From Escherichia coli (GTDB lineage Bacteria > Pseudomonadota > Gammaproteobacteria > Enterobacterales > Enterobacteriaceae): a stretch of 64,000 nucleotides of DNA. A program made the position numbers. Positions 51,301 through 54,300 of this stretch are shown piece after piece; the stretch's first letter is position 1, and each line of letters starts with the position of its first letter. The stretch lies in NCBI RefSeq assembly GCF_024700885.2, contig NZ_CP117016.1; one strand, written 5' to 3'.

Positions 51301-54300
51301 GTATTGAATATACTAATGGTAGAAACTATGAGCCGGATTTTGTGGTTGAAATGAACAATGGGTACTGTCTTATTGAACCGAAAAAAGCCAATGAAATCGA
51401 TACTCCTGAAGTTCAGGCCAAAACACGGGCAGCCCTGCGCTGGTGTGAATTTGCCAATCAGAATGCAGCAAAGAATGGCGGAAAAGTATGGAGATATGCG
51501 CTTATCCCACATAATGAAATTGAATTAAGTCGCACAGTTTCAGGGTTAATGGCTGATTTTATGATGACAAATAGTTTATCAGCATAGTAGCAGCCCACCG
51601 GAGTTGTAATTAAAAACCATTCCGAGACATTGCGTTGCTGTTTCGGGATGGTTTAGCATAAACAATGAGTAAAAAATGAATACAGAAAGACCGCTCCCTC
51701 AAAAGCAGAATCTTTATAAGACCATGTGGTATTTAATATTCAGCGCAGAGAGATTTGTAACTATCGCTGCCGAAAATTCAATGGCCTTCGAACTTGAACA
51801 TGAAGAGTATAAACGAAAACTTGCCGAGAGGAATTATAGTATTGATCCCAAAGTTCATGTCCACTCTCATCCACAAAGGCTGAAAGACCTGCGAACTTTA
51901 TTACTCAAGACAACGGGTTGTATTTTGAGTGTAATAATCTTAATAGTAGGTATTGGCTTTTATACTTGAAGTGGCACACTGAATTTGGCCACCTGAACAG
52001 AGGTGATATGCTCACCTCAGAACAACACAGGTGCTCCAATGAAAAAAAGAAATTTTAGCGCAGAGTTTAAACGCGAATCCGCTCAACTGGTTGTTGACCA
52101 GAAATACACGGTGGCAGATGCCGCCAAAGCTATGGATGTTGGCCTTTCCACAATGACAAGATGGGTCAAACAACTGCGTGATGAGCGTCAGGGCAAAACA
52201 CCAAAAGCCTCTCCGATAACACCAGAACAAATCGAAATACGTAAGCTGAGGAAAAAGCTACAACGCATTGAAATGGAGAATGAAATATTAAAAAAGGCTA
52301 CTGTAGATTCAATCTGTCAATGCAACACCCCTTTCAATTATCTCTTTCGGTGTTTTGAACTTCAGTGTCTTTCTCGGTCTGTTGTTTAGCTGAGCAGCAA
52401 CCAGATCTAGTTCATGTTGAGTATATTGGGCAAGACATGTCTTTTTAGGAAAGTACTGCCGAATTAGCCCATTTGTGTTCTCATTTGTTCCCCGCTGCCA
52501 AGGACTCTGAGGATCGCAGAAGTAAACTTTAACGCCGGTGCTGACAGTAAATTCTAGATGTCTGGCCAGTTCCATTCCTCTGTCCCATGTCAGTGATTTT
52601 CTGAGTTCTGACGGTAAACTCAGGAATTTGTCGGTAAGAGCCTGATTTACTGAGACAGAATCTTTGCCCCTGAGTCTAAGGATGATCGTATAACGTGATT
52701 TTCGGTCTACAAGTGTGGCTATATGAGAGTTTTTTGTACCTGAGACTAAATCGCCCTCCCAATGCCCCAGAGAGCGTCTGTTATCGATATTTCGGGAACG
52801 TTCGTGAATTGGTGTTCCGTTCACTATGTTAATCGTACCTCTTTCGCCTTTGCGGGTATGACGCCTGCCATGGCGAAGGCTATGCGACCGTCGCAGATGC
52901 TGTATATTCAGGTGGTGTAGCGCTTCACGGCTACGAAAGTACAGCGTTTTATAAATTGTCTCAGGTGATATTCGCAGCGTTTTTTGACGTGGTTTTGTTC
53001 GCCTTAACCATCCTGATATTTGCTCTGGAGACCATTTCATCTCCAGCTTTTCCAGAACAAGCTTTCGCAATGGCAAATTTTGATCCAGTAAGCACGGTTT
53101 TGGCCTTTTCGCCATTCTGTTGGCTCGGTTATTAGCATCAACAGCTTTGTAATAGCGTCTGCCCCGATTACGCTGAACTTCACGTGAGATCGTCGAAGGA
53201 CTGCGATTCAGCGCAGTAGCTATCGCACGAATGCTCATTTTGGCTGACAAACCAGCTCGTATCTCCTCGCGCTCAGACAGTGTCAGGTGAGCTACAGCCC
53301 GCTTACGCTCATGGGGTTTTATGCCGCCAGTATCCCTTAACATAGTGAAGATCGTTCCGGGTTTTGAACCCAGGATATTCGCTATTTCACTGAAGCCTGT
53401 TCCGTTCTTCCATAGTTCAAAAACAGAGGCTTTTTCCTCTGCTGTAAATGTTCGTCTCATTCAAAAAACCTCCGCAACCCCATGTTTTCACATAACTGTT
53501 GCGTTGACCAATTGAATCTACAACCGCGCTCTTGATGTCAGACTCCCTGAACAGTTCTCGATAATCGGGAAACTCAGAGCGCATTATCCTGTGGTCACAC
53601 TCTGCCATGTGTTCGGGGTTCATCGCAGCAGCTACAGATACTGGAAAAACCGTCCTGAAAAACCAGACTGCAGACGGGCTGTATTACGCAGTCAGGTACT
53701 TGAGCTACATGGCATCAGCCACGGTTCGGCCGGAGCAAGAAGCATCGCCACAATGGCAACCCGGAGAGGCTACCAGATGGGACGCTGGCTTGCTGGCAGG
53801 CTCATGAAAGAGCTGGGGCTGGTCAGCTGTCAGCAGCCGACTCACCGGTATAAACGTAGTGGTCATGAACATGTTGCTATCCCTAACTACCTTGAAAGGC
53901 AGTTCGCCGTGACCGAGCCAAATCAGGTGTGGTGCGGTGATGTGACCTATATCTGGACGGGTAAGCGCTGGGCGTACCTCGCCGTTGTTCTCGACCTGTT
54001 CGCAAGAAAACCAGTGGGCTGGGCCATGTCGTTCTCGCCGGACAGCAGGCTCACCATGAAAGCGCTGGAAATGGCATGGGAAACCCGTGGTAAGCCCGGC
54101 GGGGTGATGTTCCACAGCGATAGTAATAATGCCGATGTCAGTCTTTACCACCACTTAGTTTGCCGTTTAACCAGATTGGTGTGATTACTGATGCAGTGAA
54201 GACCTGAACCGCCCCGGAAATCCTGGAGACTAAACTCCCTGAGAAAGAGGTAAACAGGATGACTAAAAATACTCGTTTTTCCCCCGAAGTCCGTCAGCGG

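Follow-up and report, generated by a model that had tools for sequence, protein, structure and literature searches.

An IS911-type insertion has left a probably non-functional 5′ remnant of a conserved membrane-protein gene behind a type III restriction gene in Escherichia coli

The open reading frame (ORF) examined here follows a cluster of defence genes and precedes a nest of insertion sequences in the window, that is, the whole 64,000-nucleotide stretch of Escherichia coli DNA that was analysed. The features of the locus are as follows.

40824..43673, + strand, SNF2-family helicase gene (949-aa SNF2-related protein in RefSeq), ietH of ietHAS and first gene of the cassette
43699..44679, + strand, ietA, AAA ATPase of 326 aa (PADLOC IetA, E = 3.9e-105)
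44689..47076, + strand, ietS, S8 subtilase of 795 aa (PADLOC IetS, E = 0)
47086..48714, + strand, mod, type III methyltransferase of 542 aa, intact (PADLOC MTase_III, E = 9.4e-292)
48717..51587, + strand, res, type III restriction subunit of 956 aa, intact (PADLOC REase_III, E = 0; DEAD/DEAH box helicase in RefSeq)
51614..51654, + strand, strong hairpin in the gap from res to the small gene, conserved in position and structure, with no good U-tract
51676..51966, + strand, truncated small gene, 97 native codons equal to residues 1-97 of a 168-aa family
51904..51966, + strand, hydrophobic helix of the ORF by hydropathy, codons 77-97, equal to the first of three transmembrane helices (TM1) in the intact protein
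51967..51969, + strand, stop codon TGA of the ORF, formed by bases 1-3 of the left inverted repeat of the IS911-type element
51967..52296, + strand, left part of an IS911-type (IS3 family) element, interrupted by IS30 and further truncated
52309-53460, − strand, IS30 transposase ORF (ORF call)
about 54200-55516, IS629-type element

The start of the SNF2 helicase gene was inferred by offset from an identical locus (L001). The defence cluster of the window, made up of ietHAS and the type III restriction–modification (RM) system, is intact, the break being confined to its last gene. The ORF, on the + strand, has 97 codons and a stop and runs from the ATG at 51676 to the TGA at 51969; res ends at 51587, leaving a gap of 88 nt, and the IS911-type end follows, just as the initial annotation had placed them. 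That annotation had also described the ORF as unannotated, but RefSeq carries a hypothetical protein, WP_001091149.1, at identical loci, for example in E. coli 300709 and O104:H4 strains.

Mapping against intact alleles placed the junction between gene and IS at 51966 and 51967. The native sequence of an intact locus (L008) reads TATACT followed by GGAACA, while the window reads TATACT followed by TGAAGTGGCAC. Matches to IS ends, which numbered in the thousands, started at query position 408, corresponding to window position 51967, and the same end was found across E. coli sites. The terminal inverted repeat, starting TGAAGTGG, matched exactly and occurred once, at 51967-51993; a pattern scan of the window found no second inverted repeat of this element, and its right end is absent from the window. 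An OrfA-like (HTH) reading frame follows the repeat, and the presence of both marks the element as IS911-type. RefSeq annotates the IS end as 'IS3 family transposase, incomplete', followed by IS30, without using the name IS911, which we take to be that of the element ending the ORF. The missing 3′ part of the small gene was not found by tblastn and blastn of the whole window. As in other IS-truncated genes, the break lies exactly at the terminal inverted repeat (TGAAGTGGCAC...), the IS provides the stop codon, and the 3′ part has been lost within an IS nest, here of IS911, IS30 and IS629. The IS911-type element joined the gene directly after codon 97, and its terminal TGA became the stop codon. 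In the ancestral order, an integrase and tRNA-Leu came after the small gene, and the area has since been rearranged by IS30 and IS629 activity.

The identity of the interrupted gene was revealed by its homologues. Full-length proteins of 168 aa were found in Cronobacter, Pectobacterium, Salmonella, Pantoea and E. coli, and the ORF aligned with their first 97 residues at 69-82% identity with no indels. A locus search with a 10-sequence alignment gave three confirmed genome loci, and a profile search gave 147 representatives at 50% clustering, mostly 160-170 aa in length; we label this family the P0001 / WP_044060591.1 type, after a member from Cronobacter and one from E. coli PigCaeca_2, respectively. 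A 101-aa variant, P0014, also exists. When longer members (P0125, P0136 and others) were checked for domain fusions, no Pfam matches were found. Over the ORF, the dN/dS ratios were 0.10-0.40 in its own frame compared with about 0.75-1.9 in the other two frames; for the gene they were 0.10-0.20, compared with about 1 out of frame, indicating purifying selection. AlphaFold2 modelling of full-length P0001, with a 103-sequence alignment as input, reached a pLDDT of 94.4 and a pTM of 0.85, with helices at residues 65-97, 108-128 and 140-165; an earlier run with 10 close sequences (pLDDT 55) was discarded. The intact protein is a small inner-membrane protein in which an N-terminal helical part of some 64 residues precedes three predicted hydrophobic helices.

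The ORF covers only the N-terminal helical region and the first hydrophobic helix. Its residues at about 77-97, KTTGCILSVIILIVGIGFYT, are hydrophobic, with a Kyte-Doolittle maximum of 2.39 in a 19-residue window. The C-terminal hydrophobic helix reported in the initial annotation is therefore present, but it is C-terminal only because the gene was cut there, being the first of three helices in the intact homologues. Across 103 members, the only columns conserved at 90% or more were W122, E142 and G156, all beyond residue 97. The conserved core, SW(S/A)TLFxLG...W.G..L(D/H)EL, runs from the end of helix 2 into the start of helix 3, with G156 in addition. The window copy has neither helix 2 nor helix 3, lacks the core and lacks every near-invariant residue, and by its conserved core it ranks as a fragment of a family member rather than an intact one. 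Because these parts are gone, the stub is probably not a working gene and its product is probably non-functional. We consider it likely that the ORF is the 5′ remnant (58%) of a 168-codon membrane-protein gene, cut by the IS911-type element and now dead. The earlier suggestion of a small membrane protein was right in that a conserved 168-codon membrane-protein gene lies behind the ORF, but the window holds only a 97-codon 5′ fragment with a stop codon from IS911, and the ORF should be labelled an IS-truncated pseudogene fragment, not a small protein gene. Its co-transcription with the defence cluster, also part of that suggestion, is uncertain.

We found that the position of the small gene was as conserved as its reading frame. 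The six-gene order ietH-ietA-ietS-mod-res-small gene is kept between genera, with the cassette present in E. coli, Cronobacter, Pectobacterium, Salmonella and Pantoea, and in Kosakonia, where a nonsense codon has made the small gene a pseudogene. The small gene lay 81-89 nt past res on the same strand in all chromosomal cassettes examined, which covered six enterobacterial genera. Conservation beside homologous Mod-Res pairs, which the initial annotation had put forward as a check, was thus borne out. Type III loci with the small gene directly after res were L003, L004, L007, L008, L012, L013 and L028, and a subfamily of 38-40% identity was found directly after hsdR of type I RM systems (L009, L014 and L021). 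The small gene was always co-oriented with the R gene, either res or hsdR, with gaps of 20-89 nt. The integrase of L014 was 75-82% identical to those of the type III islands, and that of L021 only 40-45%. By these sequence relationships, the small-gene subfamily tracks the RM type and not the integrase.

The intergenic region also showed conservation. The 93-nt segment between res and the small gene had a minimum free energy of −28.4 kcal/mol (z = −3.96), and equivalent hairpins of differing sequence were present in L003, L004, L007 and L008, with compensatory double changes in 5 of 11 pairs. The tail of the window hairpin reads UUUAGCAU, and a terminator scan made no intrinsic-terminator call; in the type I loci a long U-rich tail comes directly after the corresponding hairpin. 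An Rfam search with the intergenic hairpin matched no family.

Furthermore, the small gene has been broken several times independently while its neighbours stayed intact. In addition to the IS911-type end in the window copy, IS481 interrupts the gene in five E. coli genomes, the Kosakonia copy carries a nonsense codon and the Citrobacter copy a frameshift, and truncated forms occur in Serratia and Klebsiella. Such repeated independent loss hints at a cost of the small gene or at its dispensability.

Based on these features, we speculate that the intact protein could serve the ATP-dependent restriction systems of integrative defence islands as an accessory that is optional, costly and acts on the membrane. 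Its expression would be kept low by the hairpin or terminator in front, and once restriction is bypassed the protein may provide a second line, either as a membrane effector or as an exclusion factor. A costly effector of this kind would explain both the purifying selection in intact copies and the repeated independent inactivation. We put forward only as a doubtful proposal that the 168-aa family is an undescribed accessory of ATP-dependent restriction, namely a three-helix second-line membrane effector or exclusion factor behind a terminator-like hairpin. Type I and type III RM in their classical forms work without a membrane subunit, which counts against the proposal; if true, it would bring a membrane component into systems so far regarded as purely cytoplasmic.

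The proposed logic may, with low confidence and by analogy, resemble that of PrrC with EcoprrI, and the effector type that of SLATT/2TM proteins. PrrC-EcoprrI and RloC are cases of extra non-RM genes that sit within type I RM loci or are attached to them. The likeness lies in an extra non-RM gene physically coupled to an ATP-dependent restriction system, suggesting a back-up function for when restriction is neutralised. However, PrrC and RloC are soluble, cleave anticodons as nucleases and carry ABC-ATPase-like domains, whereas members of the present family are membrane proteins of 168 aa that lack any enzymatic motif, and the coupling is read from gene order alone. A literature search on the family's protein accessions and on small membrane proteins downstream of hsdR returned nothing relevant.

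SLATT_1 proteins (PF18181 / NF033634) and the 2TM effectors of CBASS are likewise small alpha-helical membrane proteins of defence loci. Matches to SLATT_1 in a consistent register were obtained for 12 of 60 members with NCBIfam and 5 of 60 with Pfam, all below threshold (best E = 0.0029 and 0.016, respectively; scores of at most 17 bits against a curated cutoff of 41 bits). The register aligns a pre-TM helix, TM1 and TM2, with family residues at about 57-127 facing SLATT_1 positions 6-77, and two family members weakly matched the PADLOC 2TM models. The family differs from both groups in having three predicted hydrophobic helices, not two, and no nucleotide-signalling partner; no SMODS, SLOG or cyclic-nucleotide synthase partner was seen in the loci inspected. 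Comparison by hhalign of the family with the SLATT protein of L001 gave nothing, and had little power, as that protein belongs to SLATT_6 and not SLATT_1. The distance of the SLATT_1 scores from the cutoff is one observation that counts against an accessory role.

Phage holins and superinfection-exclusion proteins share with the family a similar size, a helical membrane topology and possible toxicity, and one distant member weakly matched Phage_holin_3_6 below the cutoff (E = 3.5e-4). Holins differ in that the family genes are cargo of chromosomal islands, outside lysis cassettes. No phage homologue was found in 50,697 phage records (tblastn with P0001), in IMG/VR (pattern scan) or in the BFVD structure library; a sequence-profile search of PDB chains with the family gave nothing, so that a family with a confidently predicted fold has no solved or phage-encoded relative in these collections. 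Searches of full-length P0001 with PADLOC and NCBIfam gave nothing significant, and tblastn with P0001 found no relatives in the plasmid collection.

The upstream neighbours in the window match both ietHAS and type III RM. PADLOC made no Iet assignment for the small protein, which is not an SNF2 helicase, an AAA ATPase or an S8 protease, and its Mod/Res assignments covered only the two upstream genes, with nothing for the small ORF or P0001. ietHAS (Liu-DS4), comprising the SNF2 helicase, the IetA ATPase and the IetS protease, was described as a three-gene system (PMC13069673). Type III RM consists of two genes, and under their present definitions neither system includes the small gene. That ietHAS was described without such a gene is a further point counting against the accessory role.

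Among the competing explanations, the one with the best standing, which we regard as a real possibility though short of an even chance, is that the parent family is genuine but unrelated to restriction or defence. The gene would be either cargo hitch-hiking at the edge of P4-type integrative islands next to the integrase or a general small membrane protein, and its position after res or hsdR would reflect nothing but island architecture. In agreement with this, the small gene is the last cargo gene ahead of the integrase in most enterobacterial loci, it is frequently inactivated, and it has no PADLOC match. Plasmid Res homologues from Aeromonas (70% identity) and Salmonella (42%) come without the gene, and the neighbours of distant members are mixed or uninformative. 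Some of these lie beside a cNMP-binding protein with TumE or beside uncharacterised genes, several are on contigs under 3 kb with no informative neighbours, and those of the Campylobacterales member are all unannotated genes. Both the plasmid homologues and these mixed neighbours also count against the accessory proposal. However, it is the RM type, not the integrase, with which the subfamily co-varies, the small gene and the R gene always share a strand, at the short gaps given above, and intact copies are under purifying selection. Moreover, the annotatable contexts outside enterobacteria are again defensive: Shedu adjoins the gene in L010, and AbiU2 with an XhoI RM system does so in L011, where there is no integrase.

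A second reading of the intact protein, which we consider improbable, is that of a non-toxic membrane tether or localisation factor that would keep translocating restriction enzymes (Res or HsdR) at the inner membrane, close to where DNA enters. This reading would fit the location directly after the R subunit genes of two ATP-dependent RM types, and the soluble-looking N-terminal helical region of about 64 residues in the model could bind a partner. The type I enzyme EcoKI is, moreover, said in older reports to associate with the cytoplasmic membrane. The conserved core nevertheless falls within the membrane helices and the short loop that joins them instead of the N-terminal region, and close Res homologues manage without the gene.

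For the window copy, it is quite unlikely that the 97-aa product works as a single-pass membrane protein and is expressed together with the ietHAS and type III RM genes. The start codon, reading frame and upstream region are still intact, the 97 N-terminal residues retain the 69-82% identity noted above, and the stub carries 2 substitutions at columns invariant in nine full-length homologues, compared with 0-6 in intact members, so this test found no excess decay in the window lineage. The identical junction is present in 61 of the 65 E. coli genomes carrying the allele, which gives at least 61 genomes with the same stub. The E. coli islands bearing it are, however, near-identical (at least 99.7%) copies of one island, and its retention in those genomes is therefore uninformative about selection. 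Two of three hydrophobic helices and every near-invariant residue are missing, and the stop codon is an accident of the IS insertion. A strong hairpin lies ahead of the ORF, and a promoter scan of 51300-52100 on the + strand found no promoter-like site before it. A dead remnant remains the reading that we favour for the ORF.

The ORF as a chance reading frame in the AT-rich spacer between res and the IS, in line with the initial annotation's suggestion that it might be nothing at all, can be dismissed, since homology and dN/dS settle that it is coding sequence: for the ancestral gene this reading is refuted by homologues across genera, purifying selection specific to the frame and a broad family of 147 representatives with a confidently predicted fold. 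What would speak for chance is that the length by itself is only modestly unusual (when the 379 nt from res to the IS were shuffled 20,000 times, 2.2% of the shuffles had 97 or more codons without a stop in one frame or another), that the GC content is 37.5% compared with 42-53% in the adjoining genes, and that a Pfam search of the 97-aa ORF gave nothing significant. PADLOC gave nothing significant for the ORF, and it had no SLATT_1 match.

The window copy is thus ordinary, and the wider interest lies in its parent family, which is uncharacterised, tied to restriction subunits and often found inactivated. The only oddity of this otherwise unremarkable IS-truncated gene is its treatment in databases. 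The profile phrog_32029 has 97 positions and matches P0001 residues 1-97 (E = 2.2e-43), and both it and the RefSeq protein WP_001091149.1 appear to represent the IS-cut fragment, treated by databases as a protein family of its own.

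The 97-codon ORF downstream of res runs on the + strand from an ATG at 51676 to a TGA at 51967–51969, 88 nt after the res stop at 51587. Its product has a hydrophobic C-terminal segment at residues ~77–97 (KTTGCILSVIILIVGIGFYT; Kyte–Doolittle 19-residue maximum 2.39). Position, spacing and hydrophobic C-terminus agree with the initial annotation. The ORF was also said to be unannotated, which proved incorrect: at identical loci (E. coli 300709, O104:H4 strains and others) RefSeq lists the hypothetical protein WP_001091149.1. When the 379-nt interval was shuffled, 2.2% of the shuffles contained an equally long open frame, so that the ORF by itself is weak evidence of a gene; the argument for one comes from comparing genomes. 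A protein search recovered complete family members of 167–168 aa from Cronobacter, Pectobacterium, Salmonella and metagenomes, and a longer ORF (161 aa) was found at the same place in E. coli O8:H28, where the entire cluster is present in diverged form. The window product aligned without gaps to residues 1–97 of the complete members (69–82% identity) and then ended.

When the region was compared by megablast with 5,426 complete E. coli genomes, thousands of matches started at 51967. There an IS911-type (IS3 family) element, TGAAGTGGCACACTGAATTTGGCCACC, has its outer end, and the stop codon of the ORF is the first three bases of its inverted repeat. At the junction the Salmonella allele reads GGCTTTTATACT followed by GGAACATTA, and the window reads GGCTTTTATACT followed by TGAAGTGGCAC, placing the break at 51966|51967; a search for the 71 lost codons found them nowhere else in the window. 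Of the 65 complete E. coli genomes in which this allele occurs, 61 have the same gene–IS junction, a distribution that points to a single ancestral insertion passed on with the island. A second truncated form, P0014 (101 aa, E. coli), ends in GIGFYTEVVY in place of GIGFYT, which implies a slightly different junction, through either a one-base difference or another IS3-family element; it may represent the four genomes without the exact window junction. Only the left end of the IS911-type element remains in the window, interrupted by IS30 and cut short, and is followed by an IS629-type element and a pic-like gene:

51967–55516, insertion-sequence nest between the defence cluster and the pic-like gene
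52309–53460, − strand, IS30 transposase interrupting the IS911-type left end
53591–54184, IS911 orfB remnant
~54200–55516, IS629-type element
55637–59755, pic-like serine-protease autotransporter gene

The same IS3-family fragment, likewise interrupted by IS30, adjoins nanXY in E. coli K-12.

What the window contains is the 5′ part of a conserved defence-island gene, cut short by an IS; such events are ordinary, and databases already list the fragment as a hypothetical protein. The proposal of a small membrane protein, or nothing at all, is partly supported, its first part fitting the conserved parent gene and probably not the window copy. Its product would comprise the N-terminal region and one orphan helix, and we judge a working protein very unlikely, some residual activity being just conceivable. 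Where nine intact homologues are invariant, the stub differs at just two columns (intact members at 0–6), and without extra decay the truncation may be recent.

We found the parent gene after res in all loci examined (Cronobacter L004–L006, Pectobacterium L007, Salmonella L008, Pantoea L012, Kosakonia L013, E. coli L003 and L028), so that the check proposed in the initial annotation, conservation beside homologous Mod–Res pairs, came out positive. The order was always SNF2 helicase (949 aa), AAA ATPase (326 aa), S8 peptidase (~795 aa), Mod, Res (956 aa) and the small gene, which started 81–89 nt after res and was often followed by an opposite-strand integrase and tRNA-Leu. PADLOC recognised IetA in the ATPase, IetS in the protease, and type III Mod and Res in the pair of genes that follow, and the SNF2–IetA–IetS triad matches the recently published ietHAS system (PMC13069673). 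Pairwise dN/dS of the small gene was 0.10–0.20 in the annotated frame for well-diverged pairs and ~0.75–1.9 in the other two frames (~0.04 for res, for comparison); it therefore codes for a protein, and purifying selection acts on it. Near the window's left end, 211–1495 (− strand) shows 66–69% nucleotide identity to the integrase genes immediately 3′ of the small gene in Cronobacter (L004) and Pectobacterium (L007), so that a related P4-type integrase lies ~50 kb away and not beside the small gene.

Relatives of this Mod–Res pair also keep SNF2 in front (window 40824–51587; Aeromonas media pE31A 270–11856; a Salmonella plasmid 1–7703), with IetA and IetS, an AAA ATPase and DUF4276, or an Abi-family protein in between, respectively. 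SNF2 and Mod–Res may form a conserved frame taking different two-gene modules, in which case 'ietH' could be part of the RM-like frame, of ietAS or of both.

Searching 1.84 billion representative proteins with a profile (E 1e-3 or better) gave 147 family representatives, the majority of them 160–170 aa long and aligned over their full length. The AlphaFold2 model, built from a 103-sequence alignment, was all-helical (pLDDT 94.4, pTM 0.85), with short N-terminal helices at 13–22, 24–39 and 43–50 and three long helices, 65–97, 108–128 and 140–165, matching hydrophobic segments. Only W122, E142 and G156 were conserved in at least 90% of the 103 sequences; these, together with the motif SW(S/A)TLFxLG...W.G..L(D/H)EL from the end of helix 2 to the start of helix 3, all lie past residue 97 and are absent from the stub. 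No significant model for the family was found in Pfam, NCBIfam or PADLOC, no specific match in PDB sequence and fold searches or the BFVD structure library, and no relatives in phage, plasmid and IMG/VR collections. The sole PHROG match, phrog_32029, is a 97-position profile on residues 1–97 of the 168-aa protein; given this length it appears to stand for the IS-truncated E. coli stub, a pseudogene fragment presumably taken from predicted prophage regions. Sub-threshold SLATT_1 matches occurred in one consistent register in 12 of 60 members, and two members touched CBASS 2TM effector models, but the similarity falls outside SLATT by every membership criterion tested.

Gene context is the main functional lead. 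Directly 3′ of hsdR in three type I RM loci is a subfamily that shares 38–40% identity with the type III-linked proteins, intact in L009 and L021 and frameshifted in Citrobacter L014. The L014 integrase is 75–82% identical to those of the type III islands, yet its small gene is type I-linked, and the L021 integrase is only 40–45% identical to them; on these comparisons the subfamily tracks RM type and not the island integrase. Distant members adjoin a Shedu nuclease (L010) or HEPN-AbiU2 and an XhoI-type RM system (L011); others have a cNMP-binding protein and TumE, or unannotated genes, as neighbours.

Ahead of the small gene there is always a strong hairpin. At type III loci its sequence varies and its structure is kept, with compensatory changes in 5 of 11 pairs. 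At type I loci the hairpin resembles a typical intrinsic terminator, each with an 11-bp stem and U-rich tail:

L009, 9947–9990
L014, 7940–7985
L021, ~7232–7260

The gene starts only ~25 nt after this textbook-looking terminator, leaving no room between the two for a promoter, so that expression would need read-through or a promoter that overlaps the stem-loop.

Many independent events have inactivated the small gene and left the five upstream genes intact, except for a split hsdR in Citrobacter. We found IS911 (the window type, at least 61 E. coli genomes), IS481 (five E. coli genomes), a nonsense codon at position 78 in Kosakonia (L013 8001–8507), a frameshift in Citrobacter (L014 7953–8500) and truncated forms in Serratia and Klebsiella. 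Among the 73 complete E. coli genomes that have the cassette, an intact 168-aa copy was seen in only 3.

From the gene context, hairpin, repeated inactivation and SLATT_1/2TM hints, our best guess, made with low confidence, is that the intact protein is an accessory of ATP-dependent restriction systems, optional and costly and acting at the membrane, which would serve as a second-line effector or exclusion factor. Confidence is low because plasmid Res homologues lack the small gene (Aeromonas, 70% identity; Salmonella, 42%), ietHAS is presented as a complete three-gene system (PMC13069673), and the resemblance to SLATT extends to none of the membership criteria tested. The tie of this uncharacterised family to restriction R subunits is the point of interest beyond the window.

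A 44-bp piece of the small gene (window 51899–51942, codons ~75–89, 100% identical) occurs by itself in the complete genomes of ~190 other E. coli. One such locus was inspected (L002 4001–4044); there the piece abuts an IS5-family end between a glycosyltransferase cluster and yicL, and it looks like the relic of a second, destroyed gene copy in a different island.
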